From: a virus
Taxonomy: Duplodnaviria > Caudoviricetes
Direction: 5' to 3' (one strand)
DNA length: 64,000 bases
IMG/VR virus record: IMGVR_UViG_3300032233_002657
Span: 117,490 to 181,489 of that record
This document shows positions 7,265 through 60,347 of the stretch, one piece after another (position 1 is the first letter of the stretch; every line of letters starts with the position of its first letter). The notes under the pieces were generated by a model. It was not told the DNA's origin and searched no databases. It worked only from the letters and a program-made list of their open reading frames with translations. A program made the position numbers and the translations under genes.

Positions 7265-7651
7265 CTATAAGCCTAAGTGCTGGCGGAAACGACGATCGGA
7301 CTCGCGCTCGGAAGTAGTCCGTCGTCCCACGTATGGATCATTCATCGAGTCGTAATTGTTAGCTTGCTTTTCTGGTTTACCCAGAGCTTTTGGCTTAACA
7401 GTTTTACTAACGTCCGCAGCCTTGATCAAGATCTCTAAAGCCTTGACATGACTAGTCAAAGCAGAAGCGGCCTTTTCACGGTCAGCTGGGTCAATCCTTT
7501 CGAATTGAATTAGGGCATCGACTGCTTTGGGGAGAAGCTCCCCGATGCGTTCGTCTGCAGCTCTTTTTTCATTGAGTTGCTTTTCAGCTACGTCTAGGGC
7601 AGCCTCTACGCATTGAATATAGTCGATTGCTTTTTCTGAGAAATTAGACAT
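7265..7651 (-). CDS. Hypothetical helical head-module protein
   Basis: 128 aa coiled-coil-like; EKRAA, EKAAS, EKQAN motifs. Confidence 0.55.
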   Translation of the reverse strand: MSNFSEKAIDYIQCVEAALDVAEKQLNEKRAADERIGELLPKAVDALIQFERIDPADREKAASALTSHVKALEILIKAADVSKTVKPKALGKPEKQANNYDSMNDPYVGRRTTSERESDRRFRQHLGL

Positions 7652-7667: not shown

Positions 7668-8891
7668 TTACCCAATTATGTCACGAACACAAAGTTTGAT
7701 CTGGTCGCGCAAGTTACGCTGTTGAGCGGTCTTGGCTTCAGAGAATCTAAATTTGCCAGCTTTGCGATAGGACTGAGCATACTTAATTAAGTTAGTTAAG
7801 TCGCGCTCTACGCTAGCTTGAGCTGAAGCCATTTTAGCAGCTTCAGGGGGCATTCCAGCTTCAGGTGGCATCATTCCAGCTTCAGGAGGCATTCCGCCTG
7901 CGCCGCCGTCTCCACCTTGTTGAATCATGGCTAACAACTCTGCAGGATCAATTCCTTGTTCCTGAAGTGCCATAAGCAATTCTTGAGCTGCGTCATCAGG
8001 GCTAGCGCCGCCACCAGTATCTTCGCCAGCCATCTGGGCCATCATACCGGGGTCTACTTCCATGCCGCTTTCTGATCCGCCTTCTCCGTGCTCAGCAGAC
8101 TCTTCCATAGGAGATTCTGAAGATTCTTCTTCAGGGGCTGCAGCTTCGCCTTCTGCAGCTTTATAAAAAGCTTGAAGGTAGCTTCCAACCATAGCTGCTT
8201 TTTCAAGGCCGTCAGCAATAGTTTGCTCAATAGAGCCAGCTACTACTTCTCTGGCTTGCTTGGAGAACTCATCTTGTTGCTCAGTGGTCAAAGAAGCCGC
8301 TGCGGCTCCAGCTGCCGCCATTTTATCGCAGTCTGCGGCTGGGGCTTTTTTACCCTTCTTTTCATCTATTTTTTTTTGAATAAAAGCTGGCATAGGCTTT
8401 GAGCCTGCTGCTTCTTTCATATTTACAGTGATGTCTGAAAGAATGTCATTAGCCTTGCTGCTGGCCAACTTTCGAAGTTCACCAAAAGACATAGAGCCAT
8501 ACTTTTCGCCATCATTAGTCTTAGCTGGGTGGCTAGTACCTGGGTCTTCTTTATCGCTCTTATAGTCATCTTCGCTAGCTGGGTCTTCGCCGGTGGAAGC
8601 GCTAGTAATGCCTACATCGAACTGTTGATCTTCTTGTGAAGGGGAGCTGTCTCCAGCTGCGTCTACTCCACCGTTGAAGATGGTCTTCTTTACATCAGAT
8701 GTGTTTTCTTGGGATCGTTTGCCTTCAGTAGCGGGTTGGGTGTTGTCGTCAACATCCTTGCTAGGATGGCTGGTGTCCCCACCTTGGCTACCGGGTTCGG
8801 TATTAGCTGCTGCTCGTTTCTTAACGGAAGCTTGCTTCTCGTTTTCAACTTCAGAAAGAAATTCTCGCAGCTGATCAAATAGCTGAGGCAT
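7668..8891 (-). CDS. Putative scaffold/core protein, acidic and low complexity
   Basis: 407 aa between protease and capsid genes; many KxA motifs (KQAS, KRAA, KLAS, KEAA, KMAA, KAAE, KMAS); GM(M)PPEA repeats. Confidence 0.5.
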   Translation of the reverse strand: MPQLFDQLREFLSEVENEKQASVKKRAAANTEPGSQGGDTSHPSKDVDDNTQPATEGKRSQENTSDVKKTIFNGGVDAAGDSSPSQEDQQFDVGITSASTGEDPASEDDYKSDKEDPGTSHPAKTNDGEKYGSMSFGELRKLASSKANDILSDITVNMKEAAGSKPMPAFIQKKIDEKKGKKAPAADCDKMAAAGAAAASLTTEQQDEFSKQAREVVAGSIEQTIADGLEKAAMVGSYLQAFYKAAEGEAAAPEEESSESPMEESAEHGEGGSESGMEVDPGMMAQMAGEDTGGGASPDDAAQELLMALQEQGIDPAELLAMIQQGGDGGAGGMPPEAGMMPPEAGMPPEAAKMASAQASVERDLTNLIKYAQSYRKAGKFRFSEAKTAQQRNLRDQIKLCVRDIIG

Positions 8892-9035: not shown

Positions 9036-10472
9036 TTAAGCAAGTTGGTTGTAAGCTACAACCGCTCGGCCATAATGGTATTCTTGAGATTTATCTGCAG
9101 AAGCAGCCTTTAACCACTGTAATTGGTGCATGGCATATGCCTTGGCCAAGTCTTCGTGCTTGGAAAAATCTTCTGCATATTTTTCAAGATTTTTTAGAAC
9201 TGGGCGGGAAGACAGGCCAGATATCACGGCTGACCTAACTCCTATCTCCACACTTCTTACATCTACAGAGTGAGCACTGGCGAACTTAATAGCTTCTGAG
9301 TGCTGTCTCTCAGTAGATATAGTCTTAGATGGATCGGTGGATCTATCGCTAGCTAGCTTTTCAATAGTGGAGACGTCTCCAATCAATTTAGTAAACACAT
9401 TAGGGAGATGGCGCTTAACTTCAGCTGCTATTTTTTCTTGGCCTTTAGCTGATAACCAGTCTTCCAAAGATACAAGAATACCTTGCTTAGCGCATGCTGC
9501 CCAAGGGTAGATCCCGTTTATGGAGCTTTGCTTCCAGAAAGGAAGAGGCTTTACTCTTGCAGATACAACTGCCATAAGGACTGGGCTGCACACTCCAGCT
9601 GATTTCTCTAAGTTAGATAAACTTCTAGCTATCTCAGCTAGTTTTACGGAGCCTTCAGAAAGATCACCGGATAGTATGCTGTCCGATGCTCCTACTCCAG
9701 CTAACTCAGCAAGTTCTGCTCCGCCTACTACGCACAAGCCAGAGGCAGCTTTATAATGACCAACTACCCAGGCTATTCGGTCGGCTGGGCGGTAAACGTC
9801 GCTTATGTCGAACCAAGTCGGGTTCGGGTTATCAACATGAAGAACGTGGCCGTCTTCTGCAACTTTAGTAAGGTTAAATTTGCAACCGCCGTACTTGCAC
9901 ATATCTTCTGTGCAGTACTCATCTCTATTCTTTGCTTTATTGCCGCATCCGGAACACACATCATGGGAAACTCTGCAGGCCATGCTTACGCCCCAGTTGT
10001 CATCCCCCGAAGCTATCTTCTGCATTTCTTTATCGGCTACTAATCCTTTATTTCGATCTGCTGCTTCCTTAGTAGCGTTAAGAGCTACGATGAGCTCTAC
10101 TCGTTTCATCTTATCGTTGAACATGGAAGCCTTAACCATACCGTAGCTTTTTTCAGTGTCTTTGTTTTTGTGGTTTCTGTACCACCGAGCGTGCTTAACA
10201 AAAGTGTCATGGTACTTACGGCAGGTGGCTTCTTTAAAGCCGTCACCGTTGCGGTTAGGGCCGTATGCCTCTGTAGAACCTATAGCAATCATATGAATGG
10301 GTTGTTCGCCTGGCTTAAACTCTATTCCCCTAAGGAGGTGAGCAGCTTCGTCTCCAGCCCTCTTTACAAATGAAGAAAGATCGTGACCAACCAATCCTTT
10401 GGAGGATACTTTAACTATAGAGCTAACGGAGTCTCCGAAGCTCTGCGAGTTAGGGGCTATGATCTTAATCAT
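9036..10472 (-). CDS. Probable prohead (maturation) protease with Cys-rich insert
   Basis: N-half has PNRNGDGF, YRNH (candidate catalytic His) and WGVSMAC (candidate catalytic Ser), followed by CSGCGN..YC; located upstream of scaffold/MCP. The C-half is KxA-rich. Confidence 0.65.
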   Translation of the reverse strand: MIKIIAPNSQSFGDSVSSIVKVSSKGLVGHDLSSFVKRAGDEAAHLLRGIEFKPGEQPIHMIAIGSTEAYGPNRNGDGFKEATCRKYHDTFVKHARWYRNHKNKDTEKSYGMVKASMFNDKMKRVELIVALNATKEAADRNKGLVADKEMQKIASGDDNWGVSMACRVSHDVCSGCGNKAKNRDEYCTEDMCKYGGCKFNLTKVAEDGHVLHVDNPNPTWFDISDVYRPADRIAWVVGHYKAASGLCVVGGAELAELAGVGASDSILSGDLSEGSVKLAEIARSLSNLEKSAGVCSPVLMAVVSARVKPLPFWKQSSINGIYPWAACAKQGILVSLEDWLSAKGQEKIAAEVKRHLPNVFTKLIGDVSTIEKLASDRSTDPSKTISTERQHSEAIKFASAHSVDVRSVEIGVRSAVISGLSSRPVLKNLEKYAEDFSKHEDLAKAYAMHQLQWLKAASADKSQEYHYGRAVVAYNQLA

Positions 10473-11544: not shown

Positions 11545-12930
11545 TTAAAGCCCTACATCAGACCCGCCGCTGCTGTTTAGCTTCTTCCTAAAATTAGATG
11601 TATGCGCTCTAGTTTTCTCTATGTCCAGCATTTGCTGTACATCAGATGGATCTATAGCTGCGTTTCCGCCTTCCAATCTTTTTCTAAGCAGTGGTCTCAT
11701 TATGGCTGGATTAGAAGAAGCGTCTGGGGCTATGTGGCTTACTTCGTTAAAGTGGAAAGCCACGTCTTCAGGATGGTGAGCGCCTATGACGTCGTCATTT
11801 GCCATAAGGTCTGACAAGGCGGTACTGGCTCTTATGTTTTTTAAAACTAAGTCCTGAACCATCTGGTCATTTTTAAACTCTAAGTTACCTATGGCGTCCG
11901 CGTTACTTTCTGGGCCTTTGGTATTAAGCAAGTCTTTAGAGGCGCTGTACATACCACCAGCTATTTGATTAGACCTGTTAGTCAATCTTCCAAGCCCTTT
12001 TGCAACAGCCCCGCTGCCGCCTTCTGAGTCATCTTCGGCTGCTGTCTTAATACCGTCCATAACTGACCCTGTGTAGTCAACAGGAAGAGACTTAGCGAAT
12101 GCTGAAGATATGGCTGAATTTATATCTTTAGATATGTATGCAGCAGCTGCCTTTTTATTAATGTGAGTAGAAGCCAGCTCCATACATTCCTGTATGGTTC
12201 TGTAAGGCTCGCACTTGATGTCGACCGCGGCGTTTGCTTCCGCCACGGTGCCAGCCTGTTTCTTAAGAGCCTTATTGGAGCCTGATAGAATATCTAAAAG
12301 GGCCGCAGCTTTCTTGCCGAACAATTTAGAGCTGTTATCCTTAGCCACGCTAAATGGAACACTTCCAAAGGTTCTAAAATAAGAAGCTAACTTGGATATC
12401 CCTTCCATCATTTTGTCTTTATTATTGGCCGAGTCCATTCTCAGCTTTTCTACGTTTCTTCCCATCTTCTCTATAAGGGAGCTAACGGCTCTAGTGTTAC
12501 CTAATTGATCTTTGGGCATGGCAGCATAGCTTCCTTTGTCGGAAGCTAATTTTGCCAAGGGCTTTAATTCAACTGACTTAGAAGCTGGCTTGTATTTGTA
12601 TATGTCAGATATGGCTGCTTCTTTGAGCATGCTGGAAGCAGTTTTAATAGAGTCTGGGTACACCAGGCCTATAACTGTCTTAAGGTCAGCAAGTTCAAAC
12701 TCAGCCAGCTTTTCCATAGGGTCTTCCCCTGATTGGCGCTGGGCTTCGCTTCTGCCAGTGTTGTAAGCTCGAACCATAAGCTCTAAATGACCAACGGGAA
12801 CCCCGTTAGCGGAAGCTGTTTTAGATATGGCCTCATTCGGGGATAAGCCAGAGTTTACTAACTCTGCTACCTCTCCTAGAGAGTCGGTTATCTTGGTTTC
12901 GGCTTCTTTACTAAGTCGTTGCGCTGCCAT
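11545..12930 (-). CDS. Hypothetical KxA-rich helical protein (putative inner head)
   Basis: 461 aa with at least 8 KxA[S/A/G] motifs (KTAS x2, KEAA, KLAS x2, KQAG, KKAA, KTAA). Confidence 0.55.
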   Translation of the reverse strand: MAAQRLSKEAETKITDSLGEVAELVNSGLSPNEAISKTASANGVPVGHLELMVRAYNTGRSEAQRQSGEDPMEKLAEFELADLKTVIGLVYPDSIKTASSMLKEAAISDIYKYKPASKSVELKPLAKLASDKGSYAAMPKDQLGNTRAVSSLIEKMGRNVEKLRMDSANNKDKMMEGISKLASYFRTFGSVPFSVAKDNSSKLFGKKAAALLDILSGSNKALKKQAGTVAEANAAVDIKCEPYRTIQECMELASTHINKKAAAAYISKDINSAISSAFAKSLPVDYTGSVMDGIKTAAEDDSEGGSGAVAKGLGRLTNRSNQIAGGMYSASKDLLNTKGPESNADAIGNLEFKNDQMVQDLVLKNIRASTALSDLMANDDVIGAHHPEDVAFHFNEVSHIAPDASSNPAIMRPLLRKRLEGGNAAIDPSDVQQMLDIEKTRAHTSNFRKKLNSSGGSDVGL

Positions 12931-13855
12931 CGGCTGAGGCCTCCGGTAATTTAGTGCCTACTAGACGCTCTAGTATAGTTGTGTCCCCGCCGGCTATAAG
13001 CATAGCCTCTTCAGCTCTGGGTTCTGCTGCGTTAATATCCTTACCAACCCATTCGAGTGTGTTCTTGTTATTTGAGTTGGAGCCTGTCGTCACAACTGTG
13101 GACATGGCCTCCATGAAATAATTAAGAACATTGCCGCTATCCGCCCCGCCTTTATAGGATGAGGAATCTGCAGCTATCTCCTGCTCCTTCTGATGAAGTT
13201 GAAGAAGCTGTAGCTGATTCCAGCTGTTAGCCGCAACAATCTTAGAGCTCTGAAGATTCTTTCTTAGAAGGTTAGCTGATATTTCTGAATGGGCCCACTT
13301 ATTCGTTTCAGGGTCGGCTCTATGGTGTATAAGCCAGTCAAGCTTTTCGGCTCCGTATAAATACCCATAAAACTTCCACAAAATATCAAGGTCCCTTTCA
13401 GAGGCTCCTAGGAATGCGTTCTTGCCTATGGCAAAGTGCATGACCCAAGAAGCGTTATCTATTCTATCCGATACATTAAAGAACAGACTTTCATACCATT
13501 TTATGCATTTAGGTGATAGGTTAGTCATCTTTGAAATAACCAAGATGTCTGTTCTAGCTAGAATCCTAGCTTCTAATTCCCACTTTAAAAGCTTGGCTTC
13601 TTGCCTGCTGTATACCTCATAAGCATCGGCTAAGGCTTGGTTAGCCATACACTTAGCGCAATACTCCCAAGCATCTTCGACTTTGTCTATCATGCTAAAA
13701 AACTTCCAAGCCGCTTGCACGAACTTATCATCTTTAAACCTGTCAGGGTTCTTGCTAGAGGTGAAGAGAGCTACAGCGCGCTTCCACCTCCAATCCGTAG
13801 GCCTGGTAGGGCTGGATTTTCTTAAGTTCACATATTCAGCAAGGCTGGCTTCCAT
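12911..13855 (-). CDS. Hypothetical protein
   Basis: 314 aa ORF in operon, overlapping both neighbours; no recognised motif. Confidence 0.6.
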   Translation of the reverse strand: MEASLAEYVNLRKSSPTRPTDWRWKRAVALFTSSKNPDRFKDDKFVQAAWKFFSMIDKVEDAWEYCAKCMANQALADAYEVYSRQEAKLLKWELEARILARTDILVISKMTNLSPKCIKWYESLFFNVSDRIDNASWVMHFAIGKNAFLGASERDLDILWKFYGYLYGAEKLDWLIHHRADPETNKWAHSEISANLLRKNLQSSKIVAANSWNQLQLLQLHQKEQEIAADSSSYKGGADSGNVLNYFMEAMSTVVTTGSNSNNKNTLEWVGKDINAAEPRAEEAMLIAGGDTTILERLVGTKLPEASADGSATT

Positions 13856-19059: not shown

Positions 19060-19278
19060 TTACCCTCCAAGTGTTATTTTCTTTATTCCCGGTGGTGTTA
19101 TTCCGTTTTGCTCTAAAGTATCTGCAAAACTGGAGTCGGCGGCCGTAACGCAGGTTATTACAGAATCTGAATTATCTAGGAACAAGGCTATAGGGTTATT
19201 TAAGTTGTCGTAAATAACTAGCCTTGTTGCCTTTGCCGGTGGAGTCTTATCAAAAAAATTATGATAATCAAGAATCAT
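19060..19278 (-). CDS. Small hypothetical protein
   Basis: 72 aa, coupled to neighbours; its end supplies the GGAGG RBS of the RNAP gene. Confidence 0.55.
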   Translation of the reverse strand: MILDYHNFFDKTPPAKATRLVIYDNLNNPIALFLDNSDSVITCVTAADSSFADTLEQNGITPPGIKKITLGG

Positions 19279-19882
19279 GTCTATTGGTCTTTCTCAAAAG
19301 GTCCATTATACCAGCTGCTTTTTCAGCAATCTCATGTTTAGAAAAACCTGCTGTCTTTGGGGCTGGTGCTGGTGCTCCAGCGGAAGGATCTCCGCCTTGA
19401 GGCTGAGGTTTACCTTGTGAAGAGTCATCTTTATTCTGGCTTGGGGCTTCGTCAAGAATGTCATGAGGAAGGTTTATGCCTAGGGAAGAATATAGATGGG
19501 TTAACAACTTTTGAATACGGCGCATAAACATTTCAGTGTTCTGCCCGTTATCTGATTTCTTTCCAGCTCCTTTGTTTCCCTTTACTTCAGCTAGAGCTGT
19601 CTGCAGTTCAGACTTAACTACAGCTCTAATTTGTTCAGTAGGGTCTTCTGGAGGAGGCGCGCCCCCCATCATAGAGGGATCCATAGGTGGTGCTCCCCCC
19701 ATCATAGAAGGGTCCATAGGAGGCTGACCGCCCATCATTGATGGGTCCATAGGTGGTGCGCCTGGAGGAGCACCTCCAGCCATAGCCGGGTCCATAGGAG
19801 GTTGGCCGCCGCCCTCAGGGGGCATGAAGGCCGACTTGATGCTCAATTGAGCCTGCTTTAATAGATACTTATTAATTGCCAT
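19268..19882 (-). CDS. Pro/Met/Gly-repeat protein
   Basis: Leader ...LKQA..IKSA, then four PPMDP[AS]M[AM]GG repeats. Confidence 0.6.
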   Translation of the reverse strand: MAINKYLLKQAQLSIKSAFMPPEGGGQPPMDPAMAGGAPPGAPPMDPSMMGGQPPMDPSMMGGAPPMDPSMMGGAPPPEDPTEQIRAVVKSELQTALAEVKGNKGAGKKSDNGQNTEMFMRRIQKLLTHLYSSLGINLPHDILDEAPSQNKDDSSQGKPQPQGGDPSAGAPAPAPKTAGFSKHEIAEKAAGIMDLLRKTNRHDS

Positions 19883-19934
19883 GATAACTCCTAGACACTA
19901 TGGGTTGCTTACATTAAGGCCGCAGTAGAGTACG

Positions 19935-20564
19935 TTACTCGTAGGGCGCTACTTTATTTGGAGTTTTAGGTTTTGCTTTTTTCCCGCTGATACCTTGTAT
20001 TCTGTTCTTCTCTGCATCAGGGTCTGTAAGATCTGAACCTGCAAATGAAGGTTTAGTAGGTTTATCGCCTTTTCTAGAAATTTGATTGGTAGTTGGCTTA
20101 GGTACTAAATCATTAACTATACTTCCGTCTTCGTCTTTTGTAGTTCCAGCTCCTAAACCTATTTCACCGCCACTATTAACTTTGTCCTGCATGGCATTCA
20201 TAAAGCTTCCAGCGTATGGGCTTACAGGAGCTTTAGGACCGAGAAGACGTTTTAAATACTCATTTCCAGTTCCTGCTAGATCCACTCCAAAGTGTTGAGC
20301 ACCGGCGCCACCTAAGCCGCCTACAGCGCCACCACCTACAGCACCAGATAAGAGACGAGATATAACACCTTGCTCGCTGTCGCCAAATAAAGCATTGCCA
20401 AGCCCGCCTACTAAGGCACCGCCGCCAGCCCCAAGGAGCCCGGCCTGAAGCCTAGGGTCCAAGCCGTTGTAAGCGTCCATGTACCCGCTTGCCTTATACA
20501 TGCTTCCAGTTTTGTTACCCAAGTACTGAGCTAACTCTATAGCTTTATTGTTTTGGTACTGCAT
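19935..20564 (-). CDS. Glycine-zipper protein with leader-like N-terminus
   Basis: NKAIELAQYLGNKTG resembles the family-A leader; GAGGGALVGGLG...GAVGGGAVGGLGG hairpin. Confidence 0.55.
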   Translation of the reverse strand: MQYQNNKAIELAQYLGNKTGSMYKASGYMDAYNGLDPRLQAGLLGAGGGALVGGLGNALFGDSEQGVISRLLSGAVGGGAVGGLGGAGAQHFGVDLAGTGNEYLKRLLGPKAPVSPYAGSFMNAMQDKVNSGGEIGLGAGTTKDEDGSIVNDLVPKPTTNQISRKGDKPTKPSFAGSDLTDPDAEKNRIQGISGKKAKPKTPNKVAPYE

Positions 20565-43686: not shown

Positions 43687-44421
43687 TTACCTCCCGGCTT
43701 TTAGCCTGGCTAGTTTTCTACGTTGTGAAGCTAATGTTGGGCCTTTTTTAATTGGGGCTAGCGGTTTTTTATTAGTGTTCTTAACTATAATTGCTGGAAT
43801 GGACTTTTTAGCTGGGGTAGCAGGAACTGAAGCAATAGCTGGCTTATAGGCCAGCACAGGAGCTGTCACTACGCTGTTAGTAGGGTTTCCAGGTGCTCCG
43901 TAGTTAGGTTCTGGCTTAAACCCTAAATTAGTAATCTTTGCCTCTAGCCCAGCTACGCCCGCAGCCTTGTTATATCCTTCTTGTTTTATAGAAGCCCTAA
44001 CTGGCATTAATTGCTTTAAAGCGTTGTCTATGTATAAACGAACATTACTTGAAGGGGGTAAGAAGTTTGCGCCGTCCTCGCCTATGCTAAACGTAGGATC
44101 AATCTCTTTTTTAGTTATAGGGTCTATCTTATAAATGTCATAAGAAAGTATATCCAGATTTACTGGTATATTAGCCATTAAAAGTTTATAAATCCTGTCT
44201 AACCTATCAAGAGCAACAACTACTCGCCTAAGCGTATTGCGCGCAGTTGCTAACTGCCTATTTAAATCTGCAGCCTGATTAATAACTGTAGGTGAAGACC
44301 TATTAAGATCTTGCCTAACACTAAGGTTGTAAAGCGCCTGTGAAGCCGTATCAACGGTATCTTGGTCAAATCTTCCATATGGATTCTCTACGATAGCTCG
44401 TAGCCTCATTGCTTCATCCAT
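43687..44421 (-). CDS. Hypothetical coiled-coil protein with basic C-tail
   Basis: 244 aa, AGGAG RBS. Confidence 0.55.
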   Translation of the reverse strand: MDEAMRLRAIVENPYGRFDQDTVDTASQALYNLSVRQDLNRSSPTVINQAADLNRQLATARNTLRRVVVALDRLDRIYKLLMANIPVNLDILSYDIYKIDPITKKEIDPTFSIGEDGANFLPPSSNVRLYIDNALKQLMPVRASIKQEGYNKAAGVAGLEAKITNLGFKPEPNYGAPGNPTNSVVTAPVLAYKPAIASVPATPAKKSIPAIIVKNTNKKPLAPIKKGPTLASQRRKLARLKAGR

Positions 44422-45007
44422 TCTTATCTCCTACTTTTGTTGGTTTATCTTCAAAGAGAATCATCGAGATAGCTTCTACGAAAGACTCTGTTACAGGCCT
44501 CTCGTTCTTCCATATTGCTAAACCAAATCTTCTGTAAGGTCTTCCGGTCTTATCCTTATCGTGCCATCGGTCTTCAAAGTCCTGCCAAGGTATGTAGCCT
44601 CTAGCGTCATCAAGAGCTGGGTCTTCGAAGTAAACGTTCTTAGAGTCGTAGTCTATTGCTATAACGTAGTGGCCGCTATCTCCGGCTAACTCAGCAGGAG
44701 TAGAGGCCCAAGCCTGAACGGCGATGATTACTGGATGGCCTTCTTCCAAATAATACTTAAGCTCTTGATTAGTCATGCGCTCATGCCATACGGTGCTATA
44801 GCCTCTTGCCTTAGCTGCTTTGCTAAGCTCCATAGGGCTAGTACCGTCGATAGGGTCTGATTTTAATTCAGCGGCAAGAACAGCTTCATCAATAAACTCT
44901 CCCCAATAGCCCAGGATGGCACTAAGGGCAGCAGGCCCACAGGTGTAGCACGATTTCTGACGAGCGTCAGGGAGTGGTATTCTGTTTCCTCGCAGGGTCC
45001 TAGTCAT
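44414..45007 (-). CDS. C39-like cysteine peptidase (stand-alone)
   Basis: RQKSCYTCGPAAL (Q..C), SGHYVIAIDYD (H), YFEDP (D), F..RW. Confidence 0.85.
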   Translation of the reverse strand: MTRTLRGNRIPLPDARQKSCYTCGPAALSAILGYWGEFIDEAVLAAELKSDPIDGTSPMELSKAAKARGYSTVWHERMTNQELKYYLEEGHPVIIAVQAWASTPAELAGDSGHYVIAIDYDSKNVYFEDPALDDARGYIPWQDFEDRWHDKDKTGRPYRRFGLAIWKNERPVTESFVEAISMILFEDKPTKVGDKNG

Positions 45008-52005: not shown

Positions 52006-53673
52006 TTAAGGTGTGGGATCAGGCAGCTTACTGATTGGTGATGCGGACATGGCTAGAGACTGAAGATGCTGCAAAGCTTTTAGCCTAGCAGCAGCAGCTG
52101 CGGGAGCCATGTAATTAGTGTTGCTGTTCATGATATCAATAGCCTCAGCTGGGGTGTAGTAACCCCTGTTGGAGGCATTCCAGACATCTAAGTTCTTGTT
52201 ACCTCTTCGGCCAGCAGCGTCCGCTAAAACAAAGTGCGTTCTAGACCCAGCAAAATTGCGTTTAATCTTAGCCCTATGAGCATCACTCCAAGGGTGATCT
52301 ACAGGATCAATAGGTAACAACCTCGGGTTCTTAGCGGTAATGCCTGTCTCTTCCTTGAGCTCTCTCAAAGCGGCTACTAGAGGATCTTCTCCTGCTTCAA
52401 TTCCTCCGCCCGGTAAGGCAAACGACTTGTCGCTATCCCAGGTGCCACCATAGATCTTGCCCTTAGGATTTTGAGTGTAAACCTCAACCCTGTCACGCCA
52501 TGGTAGCTCTTCCTTAGTTACTCCCGCTGACTTTTCTTTATTAGCTAACCAAGCCTTAACCGCAGCAATTACTTTAGGGTCTTTTGCGTGGTTTAAGTAA
52601 TGTTGCGCAGGCATCTCCCCTACAAAATCCTCTCCTAAGTATTCATACTCAGGTATGGCATCTACATCGGTGCTCTGTATGGGCGTGACGGATATTGGCT
52701 TCACCGGCATGTGGCTTACATACTCTGTTGACTTATTCCACTTGCCCAGCTCGTTATCCTCTCTATCAATCTTTGTAAATGCAGAGGCTGGAAGTTTATA
52801 TAGGTAACCGCCAGGAGTATGACCAAGCAGTGCTTTACGCCCAGTCTGCTCGTCAATCAGTCTATGATACACGGAGTTTTTTATCTTATCTTTTACAGCT
52901 TGATACTCTGCCGTTGGGTTTGCTGCAAAGGCTGAGCTGGGGGAATCGCCAGCAAACACTACGGGCGCGTTATACTCATGCCCAAATGACTTTTTAGAGT
53001 TGTAGCTGGGATCAAGCGAATCAAATTTCTTACCAGAAGCGTGGTATAGGAAGTCCCTATCCGTAACGGGTCCTTGGCTTAGAATACGCATGTTAGGGTC
53101 GTTAGCTATGTACTCGTGGTGACTAGCCAGCTTACTCACCGCATTATCCTCAGTAACTCTCTTCTTCTTACACCCTACTGGAATATAGAACCCCAGTTGT
53201 GGAGACGTCTCCAATCCGTAGCTCTTCCTGATATCTTCTAAGTCGTTGCTCTTAATAGAAATAGCCCATAGCTTGTCATAGTCACCTGTTGCAGGCAACT
53301 CAACTATTGGGCCAAGAGTGTAGTGATAAGAATGACCTCTCTCAGTGATGTGGCTAGTGCCGCCTAGCTTGTCTACTTCTTCCTTAGTCATGACCTTGAT
53401 AGCGCATTCAGTCCTATTGTTGCGAACTACGAACTCAGCTCCTGGCTCATCTAAGGCGTCAAAGACACCTTTGATAAGCGAAGAGGGCACTGTTAGTTCT
53501 AAGTTACCGCTAGGGCCTGCTTGAAGCCTACCAGCAAGAGCGTGTACAGATGTGTGCTCTGCATTCTTGTTCATAAGACCATGAGCCTGCCCAAACAAGA
53601 ACATCTCAGCGTGAAGAGCTTTGAGCCACTCAGCGCCTTTGATGATGCCTAAGGATAGCGGGGGTATGGTCAT
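52006..53673 (-). CDS. Tri-domain protein: degenerate 2H-phosphoesterase-like / ADP-ribosyltransferase-like / NUDIX hydrolase
   Basis: The NUDIX box GGGIEAGEDPLVAALRELKEETG is unambiguous. The middle domain LYHAS..F..P...VVFA...GYLYKL...EYVS..PVKP is ART-like. The N-domain has 2H-like spacing without the His residues. Likely start MTIPP (53673, TAATG coupling). Confidence 0.7.
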   Translation of the reverse strand: MTIPPLSLGIIKGAEWLKALHAEMFLFGQAHGLMNKNAEHTSVHALAGRLQAGPSGNLELTVPSSLIKGVFDALDEPGAEFVVRNNRTECAIKVMTKEEVDKLGGTSHITERGHSYHYTLGPIVELPATGDYDKLWAISIKSNDLEDIRKSYGLETSPQLGFYIPVGCKKKRVTEDNAVSKLASHHEYIANDPNMRILSQGPVTDRDFLYHASGKKFDSLDPSYNSKKSFGHEYNAPVVFAGDSPSSAFAANPTAEYQAVKDKIKNSVYHRLIDEQTGRKALLGHTPGGYLYKLPASAFTKIDREDNELGKWNKSTEYVSHMPVKPISVTPIQSTDVDAIPEYEYLGEDFVGEMPAQHYLNHAKDPKVIAAVKAWLANKEKSAGVTKEELPWRDRVEVYTQNPKGKIYGGTWDSDKSFALPGGGIEAGEDPLVAALRELKEETGITAKNPRLLPIDPVDHPWSDAHRAKIKRNFAGSRTHFVLADAAGRRGNKNLDVWNASNRGYYTPAEAIDIMNSNTNYMAPAAAAARLKALQHLQSLAMSASPISKLPDPTP

Positions 53674-54209
53674 TAGCACTTCCATTTGCGTAAAGCTTTG
53701 TTGATTCGGCTATCTGGATCATTTGCAGTTTTCTTAGAGGTAAGCTTAGACTTCATTCCGCCCATACGAGCGCAGAAGCTACTTTTTCTAGCTCCGCCTT
53801 CAGGCTGAGGTCTCTTTATATCTTGGCCTTTAGCTTTTAAGCTCTTTCGGCCTTTCTCGTTTAGGCCTCCGTCTGGGTTCTTGCCTTCTTTTCTCTGCCA
53901 CGCAGGAGATGCCTTCTTCTCTGATTCTTTTTCCTTCTTCTTACCCACGGGGCGACAAGAGCCAGAAGTTAAAGCTTTAGTACCTGGTACGCGCTCGTAG
54001 CCGCTCCAGCACTTAGCTTCCTTCTCCGATATCGCTGTTACTTTTTTCCAGTTCTTTGAATCAGGGTAATCTTTGTCTCCAGGCTTTGCTGCAGACTCTC
54101 CTCTTTCTTTTTTGGCTCTTATATTAGCCCATAGGCCTGGCTTGTTAGCTGATGCGGCTAACTTGCCCATGAGTGCTCCAAACTCTGCTGCTTTTTCTAG
54201 TTTGCTCAT
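53673..54209 (-). CDS. Leader-A protein carrying three small basic modules
   Basis: Start MSKLEKAAEFGALMGKLA (54209, AGGAG RBS); modules PGLWANIRAK, CWSGYERVPG..GSC and PAWQRKEGKNPDGGLN..SFCARM each follow a KxA. Confidence 0.7.
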   Translation of the reverse strand: MSKLEKAAEFGALMGKLAASANKPGLWANIRAKKERGESAAKPGDKDYPDSKNWKKVTAISEKEAKCWSGYERVPGTKALTSGSCRPVGKKKEKESEKKASPAWQRKEGKNPDGGLNEKGRKSLKAKGQDIKRPQPEGGARKSSFCARMGGMKSKLTSKKTANDPDSRINKALRKWKC

Positions 54210-54392
54210 AGTTAGTACTCCTACGTGCTTAAAGGTCTTAGCTCTTCGAGGCATTATACTATTTAAGGCGGGTCTATGCATACTGATTTATGCATTTACG
54301 CTATGTTTCAGTATCGCCTGTAGAAGACTTATAGTATATATCAGACAAATATAACTGTTTATAATTATTTATCTAGAGTAAGAAGCTTACCG

Positions 54393-55214
54393 ATGAGGAA
54401 ACCGCCTAAAATCATAAATGGCAAATTTATAAAGATTCACGAAGCAAACCAATTCTTTAGCCATGTGACAGTAATGATGCTTGAGCATTTTGATAACCCA
54501 ACATATGATAAAACAGTTTTTCTTCTTGGAACTTATCTTTTTGAGCCTGTAAAAGAAATAAAGAAAAAGTTTCCAGGTTATAAGATTGTGGTGTATCAGC
54601 TAGAGCAGCTTATGGGTGGCTCCAATTGGCGTAGTATAAAAACAACTATACCCAACATGGAAGGGGCTGATGAAATATGGGATTTTGATTATATAAACGA
54701 AGCGTTCTTAGACAGGAAGGGCGTAAAAGTCGATCGTCTGGTGCCTATGCTGCATACAAGTGCTTTACAGAGAATAGCTTTTAATGAAGACCCTTTCTTT
54801 GATGTTCTATTCTACGGCTATATGAATGAACGCCGGTTTAAGATTTTCCATCATCTGCAGAAAAAGCTATACAACGAGATTAAGTTAAACTGGATATACG
54901 GATCATGCGACATAGACAGGTATATACAAGACAGTAAAACAATACTTAATATACACGCCTTTGAGCCATACAATCGGCAAGAGCAGGTTAGAATGTTTTA
55001 TCCCGTAATTAATTATAAAACAGTTATTAGTGAAACAAGTCAGTTCAACAACTTATTAGGTAGCGTGATAGAGTCTTCAATAGTAGATCTGGTTGATGTT
55101 ATAAGACACGTGTGCCAAGGTGATGTCTGGAGAGAATTTGGAAAGCAGGCAGAGACAAACTTCAAACATAAAACACAACTATTTATAGATACAAATGAAA
55201 ACACGCCTAGCTGA
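54393..55214 (+). CDS. Glycosyltransferase-like (GT-B) protein
   Basis: YQLEQL, ADEIWDF, DVLFYG..NERR, SKTILNIH, EQVR, VISE. Confidence 0.65.
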   Translation: MRKPPKIINGKFIKIHEANQFFSHVTVMMLEHFDNPTYDKTVFLLGTYLFEPVKEIKKKFPGYKIVVYQLEQLMGGSNWRSIKTTIPNMEGADEIWDFDYINEAFLDRKGVKVDRLVPMLHTSALQRIAFNEDPFFDVLFYGYMNERRFKIFHHLQKKLYNEIKLNWIYGSCDIDRYIQDSKTILNIHAFEPYNRQEQVRMFYPVINYKTVISETSQFNNLLGSVIESSIVDLVDVIRHVCQGDVWREFGKQAETNFKHKTQLFIDTNENTPS

Positions 55215-55216
55215 GT

Positions 55217-55681
55217 TTACTTGCTCATAAACTTAGCTGATATCTCTTCAGGGGTAAGTGTTTTCTTAGGTGTTTGTGCTTTTCGACTTAAATATACTTC
55301 CTCTCTAGCCTTATTGGAAGCTCTAGCAATCATGTGATCGATTGCTTCCTCTTCTTTTTTCTTATTAACACTAGCAAGGTGTTTCTGATCTTCTCTCTTA
55401 GCTTCGTCCTTTTTATGCACGGAGCCTCCTGCAAGTGCGCCTACTAACCCACCTACGCCTGCTCCAGTCAAAGCTCTTCTTAACTTACCTTCTTCTGTTC
55501 CAGCTAAGTAGTCATAAAGGGCGGTACCGCCACCGCCTACAAGGGCACCGATACCGGCTCCAGCCGCGGTTGGAGAATTAAGAATGCCAGATCGGCTAAG
55601 CCCTACGCCTAACGCAGAGCCTAGTCCGGCTTGCTTTCCCATTCTAGCCCCGAAGGCTGCTGCTTTTTCAAATCTGTTCAT
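55217..55681 (-). CDS. Leader-A glycine-zipper protein
   Basis: MNRFEKAAAFGARMGKQA, then GAGIGALVGGGG..YDYL..LRRALTGAGVGG. Confidence 0.7.
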   Translation of the reverse strand: MNRFEKAAAFGARMGKQAGLGSALGVGLSRSGILNSPTAAGAGIGALVGGGGTALYDYLAGTEEGKLRRALTGAGVGGLVGALAGGSVHKKDEAKREDQKHLASVNKKKEEEAIDHMIARASNKAREEVYLSRKAQTPKKTLTPEEISAKFMSK

Positions 55682-55707
55682 TGCTATTTCCTAGAGTTAA
55701 TTGCTGT

Positions 55708-56346
55708 TTAGTCCTCATCGCTTATTAAAGGATTCTTTTTAGAAGGGATATAACCGTCGTTCTTACCTGGAAGCGTAGGCGTAGGACGGGACGGTGGGGT
55801 ATCTTTTACATCGTTAAACTTGTCTGAGGGGAACGGTGGGTATATTTCTTGGTCTCGTAAGGACGGGCCTGCGGAGAATGGCCCTGTCTTAGTATTATTA
55901 GGCCATGCGTAAGGATGGTCATTCTTATGGATTTCACGACTATTGCCTATTGAGTTGTCAAAAGCTCTAAGTGCAGCAGCCTGCGGAGAGTTCTTTGGAT
56001 GCAGCCCAGCCGTTGCGGGGCCTTTAGGCAAAAGTTTAAGATAGTCTTGAGCTAACATAGCTGAAGCATCGTAGTTTAACGTCCCACCAGCTTGAGCGTT
56101 TTCTTGAAAACGGCTTCGGCCACCACCTGTATATTGGTTAACAATAGGGGATTGGTACTTAGTCGGGTTATAATAGGCGCTCCTTGGATCTTGATCTACT
56201 CCAAAATGCGGGTGATCAGGCGTGTCTTTAAAATGGTGAGCGTCTTCGCTCTCTGCGCTCGGCGATAATTTTTGATTTTTTAAATCACTTAGTGCCCTCT
56301 TGCCCATCATGGCTCCAAAGGCTGCTGCTTTTTCAAATCTGTTCAT
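55708..56346 (-). CDS. Leader-A Pro-rich protein
   Basis: MNRFEKAAAFGAMMGKRA, then unrelated disordered cargo. Confidence 0.7.
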   Translation of the reverse strand: MNRFEKAAAFGAMMGKRALSDLKNQKLSPSAESEDAHHFKDTPDHPHFGVDQDPRSAYYNPTKYQSPIVNQYTGGGRSRFQENAQAGGTLNYDASAMLAQDYLKLLPKGPATAGLHPKNSPQAAALRAFDNSIGNSREIHKNDHPYAWPNNTKTGPFSAGPSLRDQEIYPPFPSDKFNDVKDTPPSRPTPTLPGKNDGYIPSKKNPLISDED

Positions 56347-56367
56347 TGCTATCCTCTATTGTTAAAA

Positions 56368-57162
56368 CTACTTTTTACCGGTAAACCAATTATGCAATAA
56401 GTTAGCAGGCTCTGTAAACGCATTATCAGTAATAAACGGATAATCTTTGCTTATGTGCTTAAACTGATCAGCCCTGCTTGAGTTGTTGTAAATAGCCTGC
56501 TGCCCCATAGCTTTAGCCTTGTCTAAAAGGCTAGCGTTGTCTTTAGGTGCCATAGCTGCATTTGCTAAAGTAGTTCTTGCTAGTTCGGTGCCGCCGTATC
56601 CGGCTAAGCCGCCTAAGCCTCCACCTATCAAAGAGCCTGTCAAAGCTCCACCTATAACACTAGGTCTGTTCTTTACAAACTTTATTCTTCCTTTACTGTC
56701 TCTCTTAGTTCTGCCCATATCATCAAGCTCTGGCTCATCTGATTCATCGTCTCCTGATAGAGCGCCCAAGCCTCCTATGACTCCTCCAGCCAATGCGCCT
56801 GCGCCTCCCAAGCCTATGGCGTTAGCAACACTAGGGTCTAGAGAGCCTACTTTGCTTAAAGCTGGTGCTAGCGCGCCTAATACAGAACCTTCTTGAGTTT
56901 TCTTTGAAGAATCGTTGTAAGCCTCTATGGCTTTTATCTGAGCGAGCCTTCCCAAGCCGCCTAGGGCTGCGCCTAATGCCATTCTTGTGTAGCGCTCTCC
57001 TCTGGGCCTATCTATACCTGAGAATTGGTCATAGATGCCAGCGCTGCCTGCGCCTAGCAGAGTAGCTAAGATAGTTCCTCTAGAAGAGTCCTCTACAGGT
57101 ATGTAGCCGGCGGTCTTGCCCATTCTAGCCCCGAACTCTGCTGCTTTATCATACTTGTTCAT
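56368..57162 (-). CDS. Leader-A glycine-zipper protein
   Basis: MNKYDKAAEFGARMGKTA, then two Gly-zipper hairpins. Confidence 0.7.
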   Translation of the reverse strand: MNKYDKAAEFGARMGKTAGYIPVEDSSRGTILATLLGAGSAGIYDQFSGIDRPRGERYTRMALGAALGGLGRLAQIKAIEAYNDSSKKTQEGSVLGALAPALSKVGSLDPSVANAIGLGGAGALAGGVIGGLGALSGDDESDEPELDDMGRTKRDSKGRIKFVKNRPSVIGGALTGSLIGGGLGGLAGYGGTELARTTLANAAMAPKDNASLLDKAKAMGQQAIYNNSSRADQFKHISKDYPFITDNAFTEPANLLHNWFTGKK

Positions 57163-57172
57163 AGTCTAATCC

Positions 57173-57589
57173 TTATGCTGCGTCTTGGTTAGACATTATA
57201 CTAAGCCCGCCGTTGTCTAATCTACGTCTTAGTGATCTAAGCTCATCTTCTAATTGAATAACCTTAGTTCTTAACTCATCGTTCTCTTTGCGGCAAGATC
57301 GCCTGTCGTTGTGAAGCTCTTCTATGTCCTTTTTAAGGTTCTTCATCTCTTCTCGTAGAAAGCTCTGCATGTCTTTAGATGACTCCACTATGAGTCTGTA
57401 CTCACTGAAGAGCGTATCATTCTCGTGGTGCTCTAGGCGCTGTTTCTTAAATATTATCTCTTTGGTTTTGATGTCAGCTTCCTTTGCAGCTTTGAGTCTA
57501 CTGACATAAATAAAGGAAATGGCCCCCGCGAGGGAGCCAGCCGCACCAAATATAATGCTTATAGCAGCTAATACTATATTAAAGTCCAT
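57173..57589 (-). CDS. N-terminal TM plus coiled-coil protein
   Basis: Hydrophobic residues 3-29, then heptad-like coil; holin/spanin-like architecture, function unassigned. Confidence 0.55.
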   Translation of the reverse strand: MDFNIVLAAISIIFGAAGSLAGAISFIYVSRLKAAKEADIKTKEIIFKKQRLEHHENDTLFSEYRLIVESSKDMQSFLREEMKNLKKDIEELHNDRRSCRKENDELRTKVIQLEDELRSLRRRLDNGGLSIMSNQDAA

Positions 57590-57600
57590 ATGATTGGGTC

Positions 57601-58221
57601 CTACTGCAAGTTGTTAACAGGGGGGTAGCGATTAAATTGCACAGGTCGCTTTGGCAAGTTAGAAAACCCGTTACGCACAAAGCCCTTAGAGTTGTCCAGG
57701 TGATCAGTGTCAATATCCACTATGCCATCTTCAGACACTCGTCTTCCGAAAGGGCTGGCTATAGCCGTCTGCGCGTCATACTGCATTGCTCGTGAACGAG
57801 CTGCTTGCACAGGGTCTGTTGTGTCATATTCATCATTAGGGCCGAAATAATCACCTAAAGGCCTAGGGGCCCTAGGGGTTGATGGCTTAGGAGTTAGCCC
57901 CTGATTTTGGTATATGCTGACTGGGTCGGGTTTGTCGGGCCTCACTGATCTGCTGTTAACTGAATTCCACTTAGGGGTCATAACCTCATGACCTGAGGCT
58001 GAACCCGGCGTGGGTGTAACGTTGTAGTTGGCACGCATGTTCCTATCATCAGCAGCGTTTTGAGCATTAGCTCTAGAAGTAGCTTGAGCCGCTTGAGCAT
58101 CAAGGTTACCTGGGCCTGGCTTATTAGCATCAGGGCTAAAATGGCCTGGTGGAAACGTTTTTTCATCTGCTCTCTTAAAGAACATTCTATGAAGCTTTGC
58201 TATCTTAGTAAAATTACGCAT
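57601..58221 (-). CDS. Leader-B disordered protein
   Basis: MRNFTKIAKLHRMFFKRA, then Pro/Asn-rich cargo. Confidence 0.7.
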   Translation of the reverse strand: MRNFTKIAKLHRMFFKRADEKTFPPGHFSPDANKPGPGNLDAQAAQATSRANAQNAADDRNMRANYNVTPTPGSASGHEVMTPKWNSVNSRSVRPDKPDPVSIYQNQGLTPKPSTPRAPRPLGDYFGPNDEYDTTDPVQAARSRAMQYDAQTAIASPFGRRVSEDGIVDIDTDHLDNSKGFVRNGFSNLPKRPVQFNRYPPVNNLQ

Positions 58222-58245
58222 GATTGTTACGTCCCATTATAAGGT

Positions 58246-58776
58246 TTACCGGGAAAACGGGGCTACCCGTGGTGTAAGCGTTTCCCCAGCCCCATCGCCA
58301 AACCCATGTGTTGGGTTTTCCCCAAAAAAGCTAATGCCTTGAGTATTGATGCCCTTACCGCTTGCGTAGCCTTGGTTTGTTGGGTCTGCGGGTCCACCAA
58401 ACCTGCCTGTAGTCTTCATAGTGTGCTGCTGAGCTAACTCATTGCCTAGGAGCTGTTTGCTAGCAGGGCCTGTGGGCCTAAGAGGATTGGGTATGGCTGG
58501 GTGTGCAGAAACTGGAACACGCTGAGAATCTGGGTTTGGGCGGTTACCCTTAGCTAGGATATTTGCGGTTACCCCAAGTGTTGCATTAGGTGACAGGTAG
58601 GACTTAGGGTCAAAATTGCTACCAGGAGGACGCACTAAGGATCCAGCTGCCGCGTCGGAGCCCCTGCTAGCTGACATCATCTCTTCATTGTTTTTAAACT
58701 TCTTAATTGGGGCTGCACCCTCTGCCCTCTTAAAGAACACTCTATGAAGATTCGCTAACTTATTGAAACTACGCAT
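58246..58776 (-). CDS. Leader-B disordered protein
   Basis: MRSFNKLANLHRVFFKRA; shares KNNEE...SD.AAGSL and IPNPLR with the next gene. Confidence 0.7.
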   Translation of the reverse strand: MRSFNKLANLHRVFFKRAEGAAPIKKFKNNEEMMSASRGSDAAAGSLVRPPGSNFDPKSYLSPNATLGVTANILAKGNRPNPDSQRVPVSAHPAIPNPLRPTGPASKQLLGNELAQQHTMKTTGRFGGPADPTNQGYASGKGINTQGISFFGENPTHGFGDGAGETLTPRVAPFSR

Positions 58777-58817
58777 GGTTGTTACTTCCTTGTAAAAAAT
58801 ACTGAGTTAAAACACTA

Positions 58818-59390
58818 TTAAAGATTAGGGCCTATGTTAGGTCCTGTATATCTTCCCTTCCTCATTGAATTATCATACTCAGACTTTAAATGATCTGGGC
58901 TAAGAAGATTATCGTTTTCGCCTCTTCTTAAAGGATTAGGTATGCCTGGAGCTACAGGTACAGGAACTACTTTCTTTTTAGCTTGTGAGATTGGTATTTC
59001 TGGATTGTTTCTCACCTTGATTTTACCGCTAGCAGCAGCTTCATCAAATCTAGGCTTAGAAGCTGAGTCTATAGTAGCCCCTGGAAACCAGGGAAACCTA
59101 GGCATATCTAGAGTATCTGCAATAGCGTGCCTAAGAGTAGAGCCCTTGGGGGTGAATTGGTTTACTTGGCTTAGATTTGAACCATCCCCGTGAAGAAGTG
59201 AGCCAGCTGCATGGTCAGAGGCTCTATTAGCTTTTATAGCTTCTTCATTGTTTTTGTATTTCATTCCAGGTCTATACCCTGGAGCAACAGATGGATCTGG
59301 AGCCAGAGGCTGTGAGCCGTCATAGAGGGGCGCCTCAGATCGCTTAAAGAACATGTTATGAAGATTAGCTAACTTATTAAAATTACGCAT
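58818..59390 (-). CDS. Leader-B disordered protein
   Basis: ATG at 59390 gives MRNFNKLANLHNMFFKRS; paralog of 58246-58776. Confidence 0.7.
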   Translation of the reverse strand: MRNFNKLANLHNMFFKRSEAPLYDGSQPLAPDPSVAPGYRPGMKYKNNEEAIKANRASDHAAGSLLHGDGSNLSQVNQFTPKGSTLRHAIADTLDMPRFPWFPGATIDSASKPRFDEAAASGKIKVRNNPEIPISQAKKKVVPVPVAPGIPNPLRRGENDNLLSPDHLKSEYDNSMRKGRYTGPNIGPNL

Positions 59391-59687: not shown

Positions 59688-60347
59688 TTAATCTTCCATC
59701 TCATCTAGGTTTCTAAGCATAAACTTAGCTTTGCCGACCATATCTAAGCGAGGCAGGTTAGGGAATATAATTCTTATAGCTTCTTTTATCTTATTTGCAT
59801 TACTGTTGAGGACGCAGTGGTCTGGGTCGTTGATGCCTATGTCCACGGTTATCTCCATGTAGGGCTCAGATACATCTTCGTCATATCCTGAGTCTTCTAT
59901 GCCCTCTTCACCTTCTTCACCCTCTTCACCTGGGTCGTCGCCATCGTTCCAGTCATGATCGCTGTCTGAGTCGCTATCGAATTCACTGTCTGAGCTATCT
60001 TCCCATGCCGACTCTTCTTCAAATGCATCGACCTCGTCATCATCATCTTCTTCTGCAGCCGTGGGGTCGATTATAGATGTGGCCTGCATGAAAAGCGGGC
60101 CTACCTTCTTAGTCTTCTGAGCTGAAGCCAGCATACCCTCAAAATGAGCTAGAAGCGCCTCTTGAGAAGAGAAGCCTTGCTTGTGTAGCATGTTCACTAT
60201 CTTCATAGAGTCATATACGGCTAAGCAGCCCCCATCTGGAGCGGGTACTATACCTACAAAAGCTCTGTCGTACCCTTCCATTAGCTCTATGGTTGGGTAA
60301 AGCCTCTTGAGATCCCCAACAGACATTCTGTTACGCTTGTTACTCAT
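59688..60347 (-). CDS. Protein with long acidic tract
   Basis: 219 aa; MEGYDRAFVG..AVYD..KI domain, then a ~65-aa D/E/S-rich stretch. Confidence 0.6.
   Translation of the reverse strand: MSNKRNRMSVGDLKRLYPTIELMEGYDRAFVGIVPAPDGGCLAVYDSMKIVNMLHKQGFSSQEALLAHFEGMLASAQKTKKVGPLFMQATSIIDPTAAEEDDDDEVDAFEEESAWEDSSDSEFDSDSDSDHDWNDGDDPGEEGEEGEEGIEDSGYDEDVSEPYMEITVDIGINDPDHCVLNSNANKIKEAIRIIFPNLPRLDMVGKAKFMLRNLDEMED

Follow-up and report, generated by a model that had tools for sequence, protein, structure and literature searches.

An 18-residue leader on mostly diverse cargo proteins of an uncultured freshwater phage: a candidate capsid-targeting signal

The final 64 kb of a 181,489-bp contig from an uncultured freshwater phage (IMG/VR record IMGVR_UViG_3300032233_002657, positions 117,490 to 181,489; hereafter the window) carry seven neighbouring genes whose products begin with a conserved 18-residue leader of one of two families, A or B, and continue into mostly diverse cargo. 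Our analysis supports the view that these leaders act as a peptide signal under selection, carried by interchangeable cargo in a hyperplastic locus. The tag, the selection acting on it, its modular shuffling, a motif that ties it to proteins of the head module and the fold of the phage's head protease are all directly established. By analogy with the short capsid-targeting sequence (CTS) of phage T4, the leaders may be propeptides that double as sorting tags and are cut by the head protease; this is the reading that we favour, and we give it about an even chance.

Two leader families on interchangeable cargo

All seven N-terminal 18-mers quoted in an earlier, sequence-only reading of the window were found on the minus strand between 53673 and 59390, four of family A and three of family B (Table 1). 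A purine-rich ribosome-binding site lies 7-10 nt 5' of the start in each of the seven genes. For leader-A gene 1 we favour the start at 54209 within the longer open reading frame (ORF) 53673-54281 because of its AGGAG site and the orthologues. A loose regular expression for the register of the leaders, run on the six-frame translation of all 181,489 bp, matched these seven sequences only. Running a profile of the 18-mer on the full genome, as had been proposed, gave the same result: hidden Markov models (HMMs) built from 46 distinct 20-mers for family A, from 12 for family B and from the combined set recovered the seven leaders at 32-53 bits, and the best non-leader score in the 181-kb genome was 11 bits or less. 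Each leader is composed of two Phi-x-K-x-A units that occupy residues 4-8 and 14-18, ten residues apart, which accounts for the common register noted in the sequence-only reading. Leader A also has a small-xxx-small ladder (A7, G11, G15, A19 by column counts); leader B contains no glycine and corresponds to an amphipathic basic helix (hydrophobic moment, muH, 0.60, in the top 2.4% of shuffles).

At the invariant positions G11, G15, A12 and A18, all four codons are used for each residue across 38 distinct leader DNAs, so that it is the peptide that is under selection and not a DNA or RNA element. The DNA upstream of the leader genes shows no conservation, and when a promoter motif common to the locus and the head genes was sought by simple k-mer counting, nothing usable emerged. 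The identical block at 55653-55687 and 56318-56352, previously read as a trace of cassette shuffling, is real and exactly 35 bp long. Recombination junctions fall within or at the leader, as in MNRFEKAA joined directly to other domains.

The phage is myovirus-like, with an HK97-fold capsid protein and an RNA polymerase made of a fused beta-beta'N and a separate beta'C subunit. There was no close relative among 50,697 phage records, and neither megablast with the locus nor tblastn with a leader protein gave a match to these records. Judged by RNA polymerase, Salmonella phage Arash and three Vibrio phages come closest among isolates, with ~30% identity. We refer to the source genome as G000 and to related uncultured phages as G001-G007. 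G001 is ~88% identical to G000 in nucleotide sequence across most of the genome. Within its leader locus, only an embedded gene for a 138-aa protein and the flanks align to G000, whereas the cargo is replaced; at leader-B gene 3, DNA similarity ends at 59335, 2 nt past the last leader codon. Since cargo has been swapped in a genome of ~88% identity, the locus is hyperplastic, with cargo exchanged behind a fixed tag. In G001, ~12 kb (52601-64404) separate the matches to the two ends of G000 (1 and 181489). G000 is therefore incomplete or permuted at its ends, in agreement with a completeness estimate of 88% (CheckV).

Back-translated patterns located both leaders in two IMG/VR contigs and 23 genuine metagenome loci. 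One further match of the leader-A DNA pattern (L021, 9813-11192) fell in a GatB-like bacterial ORF with the peptide KAAAFGALMGK; it was judged by eye to be due to chance and was excluded. A leader-A profile search of 1.84 billion representatives returned 88 clusters at 50% identity, and the leader-B search returned 32 clusters at 90% identity, amounting to about 88 different proteins with leader A and at least 30 with leader B, most of them with no Pfam domain. The leader copies were confined to one locus in every large contig examined. Clustering of the cargo showed that the same kind of cargo is found behind leader A or leader B.

The cargoes had been described as unrelated, and most of them are indeed diverse. 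This does not hold for leader-B genes 2 and 3 (g58776 and g59390), whose products cluster by BLASTP past the leader, or for leader-A genes 2 and 4 (g55681 and g57162), which have a Gly-zipper '..YD..' element in common. The kinds of cargo also need rewording, as they are mostly disordered low-complexity chains in which recognisable effector domains are nearly absent. Compared with the genome as a whole, the cargo is rich in proline (9.8% vs 5.0%) and glycine (11.5% vs 8.4%) and almost free of cysteine (0.1% vs 1.3%). Among 77 leader-A proteins, we detected DUF6321 in seven, a glycine zipper in two and a P-loop in one. DUF6321 (PF19846) is also present in the cargo of leader-A gene 1 (g54209), with 58.2 bits against a gathering cut-off of 28.5 (E 1.3e-15); a literature search on this domain found no paper.

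In the seven window genes the tag is an N-terminal leader, as first described, but in some relatives its core lies inside the protein. An internal core KAAxFGAMMGKxA, often without Met, is present in about one quarter of the leader-A proteins; it lies 100-550 residues from the N-terminus, with as many as four copies per protein, and stands between modules. In one arrangement, an ADP-ribosyltransferase (ART)-like N-terminal domain is followed by the motif and a disordered tail; in another, a HExxH domain and a glycine zipper are followed by the motif and further modules. The ART-like domain (~138 aa, FYHGT...LFLTTS...), fused 5' of the internal motif in relatives, does not occur in the window. 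Its nearest atlas neighbours are the ADP-ribosyltransferase-fold families PARP, Tox-ART, Arr and Tpt1, a lead only, and the atlas search with the HExxH domain gave weak leads only. In relatives, the DUF6321 cargo of g54209 recurs at 81% identity, preceded by an ART-like domain, a helical domain and the internal motif. Hence the same modules exist either as separate tagged genes or as one tag-punctuated chain, which is the behaviour of a processing site. The tag thus also serves as an internal module boundary in polyprotein-like proteins.

A motif common to leaders and head-module proteins, and the head protease

As K-R-A is the commonest form of the second leader unit, it was chosen as the hypothesis for a search of 196 crude gene products (56,137 residues). 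K-R-A occurs 18 times, eight of them within the first 40 residues, and the eight proteins concerned are three leader proteins and five contiguous proteins of the head module: the major capsid protein, a 128-aa protein, an acidic scaffold-like protein, the protease and a 314-aa protein (Table 1). Early K-R-A was found in 5 of 12 head genes and in 0 of 177 others (Fisher p = 4e-7). In an unbiased ranking, K-R-A was likewise the commonest early tripeptide of the 12 head-module genes.

Most G002-G007 orthologues of these head proteins retain the site as [KR]-x-A, and those of capsid, protease and scaffold retain it throughout. The capsid site reads EKRAL, and EKQAI in G007; the protease site is KRA in all relatives; the scaffold site is KKRA, KKKA or EKRA in G002-G007; and the site of the 314-aa protein is [KR]-R-A in G002-G005. 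The sites of the 128-aa and 314-aa proteins lapse in the most distant relatives. Capsid and protease sites are retained even in Arash (VKEAG and TKQAA), at 30-38% identity. G005 and G007 are more distant relatives without leaders A and B; there, too, the relaxed motif is found in series of neighbouring head genes.

The 128-aa head protein starts with MSNFSEKAIDYIQ, resembling both the leaders and the N-termini of HExxH proteins of relatives (MNRFEKAAIEVIQ and MSDLIKKAIEVIQ), a likeness that hints at the origin of the leaders. A further head-module protein (10475-11488) contains a Gly zipper; BLASTP gave no significant match between it and leader cargo (E = 0.19 and 1.2), so that a link between the two is only suggestive.

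The product of 9036-10472, named as a protease in the sequence-only reading, has the fold of T4 gp21. It had no match in sequence searches of Pfam, NCBIfam or PDB, and PHROGs placed it in one family of unassigned function; PF04586 (S78) and PF04327 (Prp) had no match in the genome. An AlphaFold2 (AF2) model of residues 1-226 reached a predicted local distance difference test score (pLDDT) of 77 and a predicted template modelling score (pTM) of 0.75. This required an alignment of 36 sequences, as an eight-sequence alignment gave a pLDDT of 30. The three best Foldseek matches of the model were all T4 gp21 (5jbl), and VIA-align superposed it on 5jbl with Z 11.5 and a root-mean-square deviation of 3.0 A over 148 of 164 residues, followed by herpesvirus proteases at Z 5-6. 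His60, His101 and Ser163 are invariant in the 36-homologue alignment, as are K37 and A39 of the protein's own K37-R38-A39, which lies within the N-terminal helix. The family comprises more than 1,200 environmental homologues, most of which have 470-500 aa and come from contigs of 170-230 kb; none of them is annotated or picked up by Pfam, NCBIfam or PHROG function labels. In Arash, the homologue gp222 carries the annotation of a virion protein. The protein also carries a Cys-rich insertion (CSGC...YC...C..GGC) with the appearance of a zinc ribbon. A complex prediction for the protease N-domain with the leader scored 0.00, which is not evidence either way.

G005 encodes a third type of leader, M-A/P-F-N-Y-K-A-I..V-K-x-A, on three adjacent genes for Pro-rich proteins (family C). 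Two genes of the window (19268-20564), which also lie between RNA-polymerase genes, are their counterparts. The lineage thus has at least three leader families. After the beta'C gene, G005 also encodes an 836-aa protein that starts with DUF6321.

The genes next to the locus lie on the minus strand as well. On one side, 52006-53685 encodes a 559-aa fusion of 2H-phosphoesterase-like and Nudix domains, apparently translationally coupled to leader-A gene 1 (overlap 53673-53685). The conserved flank on the other side consists of an extremely acidic 219-aa protein with Asp/Glu/Ser runs (59688-60347) and a Pro-rich protein of 855 aa that has a transmembrane segment at its C-terminal end and an acidic-basic tail (60363-62930), neither with a family match.

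Table 1. Leader genes and related features; positions refer to the window unless a relative is named.
Feature	Position	Strand	Description
Leader-A gene 1	53673..54209	-	MSKLEKAAEFGALMGKLA, then basic 'GLWANIRAKK' stretch and DUF6321 domain
Leader-A gene 2	55217..55681	-	MNRFEKAAAFGARMGKQA, then glycine-zipper module; HMM 39 bits
Leader-A gene 3	55708..56346	-	MNRFEKAAAFGAMMGKRA, then Pro/Asn-rich chain without domain; 35-bp start block as in gene 2
Leader-A gene 4	56368..57162	-	MNKYDKAAEFGARMGKTA, then Gly-zipper-rich cargo
138-aa gene	57173..57589	-	N-terminal transmembrane helix and coiled coil; between B and A genes
Leader-B gene 1	57601..58221	-	MRNFTKIAKLHRMFFKRA, then Pro-rich cargo; HMM 47.5 bits
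Leader-B gene 2	58246..58776	-	MRSFNKLANLHRVFFKRA, then Pro/Gly-rich cargo
Leader-B gene 3	58818..59390	-	MRNFNKLANLHNMFFKRS, then cargo; leader spans 59390-59337
HK97-fold major capsid protein	5706..6635	-	M-E-K25-R-A-L; NCBIfam capsid_Caudo_2, PHROG major head protein
128-aa head-module protein	7265..7651	-	K29-R-A; N-terminus MSNFSEKAI leader-like
Acidic scaffold-like protein	7668..8891	-	V-K-K25-R-A-A
Predicted prohead maturation protease	9036..10472	-	T4 gp21/herpesvirus assemblin fold, residues ~1-230; helical C-terminal extension
314-aa head-module protein	12911..13855	-	W-K25-R-A
Two leader-like genes	19268..20564	-	MAINKYLLKQAQ.. and MQYQNNKAIELAQ.., then PPMDP repeats or Gly zipper
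Stand-alone Peptidase_C39-like cysteine protease	44414..45007	-	PF13529 1.7e-15, PF03412 4.7e-11
Family C leader genes of G005	G005 (L072-L081) 93142-96714		Between two RNA-polymerase genes; two neighbours with related N-termini
ART-like domain, examples	L003 2182-3231; L024 4184-5416	-	Relatives; further examples P0031, P0057, P0072

Possible roles of the leaders

We infer cleavage, encapsidation and docking for the tagged proteins. The leaders would assign a hypervariable set of proteins, most of them disordered, to the inside of the prohead, to be packaged in the head and probably ejected. The second leader unit is the same Phi-x-K-R-A element that lies 25-37 residues into the capsid, scaffold-like and protease proteins and two other head proteins, and the gp21-fold protease may cut at this element after Lys or after Ala. 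The sequence-only reading had let the tag end in a K-x-A cleavage site. The concentration of the motif near the N-termini of head proteins fits this, but a cut after K16 rather than A18 is at least as likely, given that the T4 protease recognises Phi-x-E and then cuts. Cutting would free the tag from the products of separate genes and split the polyprotein-like fusions of relatives, and the position of the relatives' internal copies, exactly between modules, supports processing sites. Residues 1-15 may dock the protein to the assembling core before shell closure, as they are conserved far beyond the needs of a protease site. The T4-like reading is also favoured by the third leader family, which lies in G005 between genes for RNA polymerase, whose subunits are present in high amounts in Arash virions (PMC10585845).

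A more far-reaching proposal, which we advance tentatively and with more doubt than confidence, is that Phi-x-K-x-A is a repeatable 'address plus cut' module, used N-terminally and between domains, that makes the hyperplastic locus plug-and-play. Whatever stands behind the tag (disordered chains, glycine zippers, an ADP-ribosyltransferase-like domain, a HExxH domain) would enter the prohead as cargo and be freed there by a Lys-directed gp21-fold protease, amounting to a second, independently evolved and experimentally usable capsid-targeting code in a widespread but little-studied lineage of ~190-kb freshwater phages that would package their own RNA polymerase. What is new here is the statistical tie of the motif to head proteins, the finding that the tag is also used internally in polyprotein-like proteins, and the assignment of the protease fold. 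If the proposal is true, a capsid-targeting code with tag, cleavage motif and protease exists beyond the T4 and phiKZ groups, it shows which proteins of an environmentally common, uncultured lineage enter the host with the DNA, and phage heads could perhaps be filled with foreign proteins by means of a compact tag that works at any position. The K-x-A motif could further help to predict where mature head proteins begin, also in the isolated Salmonella phage Arash.

Several observations weigh against a role in head loading. The relaxed Phi-x-K-x-A motif is common (50 of 196 proteins), too frequent to count as evidence, which leaves strict K-R-A as the sole strong statistic; four of the seven leaders carry K-L/Q/T-A or K-R-S. 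In the N-arm of the capsid protein, the conserved K-x-A could have a structural role instead of being cut. The leader genes are not part of the head module and adjoin Nudix, methyltransferase and AsnB genes, and almost no cargo has a recognisable effector domain. The conserved membrane-anchored coiled-coil protein encoded within the locus, which co-occurs with A/B leaders, is left unexplained by the head-cargo model. Finally, the Arash genome has neither a shared-leader family nor homologues of the locus, for which reason the Arash proteome is not transferable to this question.

The alternative that survives best, although we consider it unlikely, is that the leader stays uncleaved and acts as a docking or anchor helix, by which disordered proteins are attached interchangeably to one fixed site on the virion or on an assembly hub, such as capsid or tail surface fibrils, like the N-terminal anchors of tail fibres or secondary receptor-binding proteins. 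The K-x-A likeness to head proteins would then reflect a common binding element and not a cut site. A nearly invariant tag of 18 residues is longer than protease sites require, the ladder of leader A fits helix packing, leader B is a strongly amphipathic basic helix, and hypervariable, Pro-rich, Cys-free tails fit surface exposure as well. However, the interdomain and multi-copy motif of polyprotein-like proteins suits processing better, and the K-R-A enrichment extends to scaffold and protease, which are not surface proteins.

Less probable still is a role of the leader as an amphipathic helix that targets non-virion proteins to a membrane or a partner, in host takeover, superinfection exclusion or a lysis-related function, with the embedded 138-aa coiled-coil protein and the glycine-zipper cargo as partners. 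The gene for the 138-aa protein is the sole conserved gene inside the locus, with 83-87% conservation in G001/G002 despite the replaced surrounding cargo. G000-G004, with A and mostly also B leaders, all have this gene, whereas G005-G007 lack it; it thus occurs in 5/5 genomes with A/B leaders and in 0/3 relatives counted as leaderless. This distribution may simply follow that of the locus as a whole. The cargo repeatedly contains glycine-zipper modules, leader B is cationic as well as amphipathic, and the locus is not part of the head module; yet most cargo is hydrophilic, Pro-rich and without a transmembrane segment, and membrane targeting explains neither the K-R-A link to capsid, scaffold and protease nor the leader-like N-termini of genes in the virion/RNA-polymerase module.

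We regard it as very improbable that the leader is the recognition sequence of another phage enzyme, such as the C39-like peptidase, as for double-glycine bacteriocin leaders, or a modifying enzyme (AsnB-like amidotransferase or methyltransferase), in the manner of ribosomally synthesised and post-translationally modified peptides (RiPPs). The C39-like gene, ~9 kb downstream of the leader locus, is 92-98% identical in G001-G003, well above the surrounding DNA, and the intervening stretch includes AsnB and methyltransferase genes. Upstream of it, 45397-46842 encodes a modular disordered protein that has a 'PGATFTP' module in common with leader cargo of relatives. A literature search on phage C39 peptidases found nothing relevant. 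A double-glycine leader ends in GG, GA or GS with hydrophobic residues at -4, -7 and -12; column counts showed no such pattern in our leaders, since leader B lacks Gly altogether and leader A has no GG/GA site with hydrophobic residues at these positions. Nor does the peptidase co-vary with the leaders across genomes: the leaderless G005 and G006 have homologues (31% identity), and G007 has none and yet keeps K-x-A in its head proteins. The absence of Gly from leader B and the lack of co-variation make the C39 idea a poor fit, and cargo of 100-700 aa is not peptide-sized.

Least of all do we expect that the leaders have no dedicated function and are paralogues whose 5' ends were homogenised by gene conversion or recombination while the remainder drifted as low-complexity sequence, for although the 35-bp block in two adjacent genes and the junctions at or within the leader point that way, the peptide is conserved with free synonymous variation across dozens of lineages, internal copies without a start codon retain the same core, and two to three distinct leader families hold the same register.

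Comparison with known systems

In Staphylococcus phage 80alpha, the capsid and scaffold proteins have an L27-like N-terminal motif that is cut by the host protease Prp. The resemblance lies in an N-terminal motif common to several head proteins, which in 80alpha is removed during assembly, and leader B (KLANLH..FF-KRA) loosely resembles KLNLQFF-A by eye. No Prp family gene was found in this phage; here the phage's own gp21-fold protease is the likelier enzyme.

Giant phages of the phiKZ/SPN3US type carry propeptides on head and ejection proteins that are cut by gp175/gp245 at S/A/G-x-E (PMC5694885, PMC7411985, PMC10052503). As may be the case here, many head-internal proteins, including paralogues and proteins associated with the virion RNA polymerase, are processed at a short common motif by a gp21-like protease, and the multiple cuts per protein can be likened to the multi-copy motif of the relatives. 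The propeptides of these phages, however, are not a common conserved 18-mer, and both the cleavage motif and the lineage are different.

The T4 internal proteins IPI, IPII and IPIII and Alt carry a short N-terminal CTS that is removed by the prohead protease gp21, and the internal-protein locus of T4-type phages is hyperplastic. The leaders resemble the CTS in being short N-terminal peptides on otherwise unrelated, fast-evolving proteins of a hyperplastic locus, in ending with a motif seen in capsid, scaffold and protease, which here would serve as the cut site, and in their company with a predicted gp21-fold protease (Z 11.5). The ART-like domain attached to the motif in relatives recalls Alt, as a lead only. 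The two systems differ in that there is no sequence similarity between the tags: column counts give the leaders a K-x-A end, perhaps with a basic P1, and no site of the Glu type, whereas T4 uses L/I-x-E. The tag described here has 18 residues in two repeated units, belongs to two or three families and also occurs internally (2-4 copies), and its cargo, known here from sequence alone, is mostly disordered and Pro/Gly-rich. The leader system is therefore best described as an apparent analogue of the T4 CTS and not as a member of that family by sequence.

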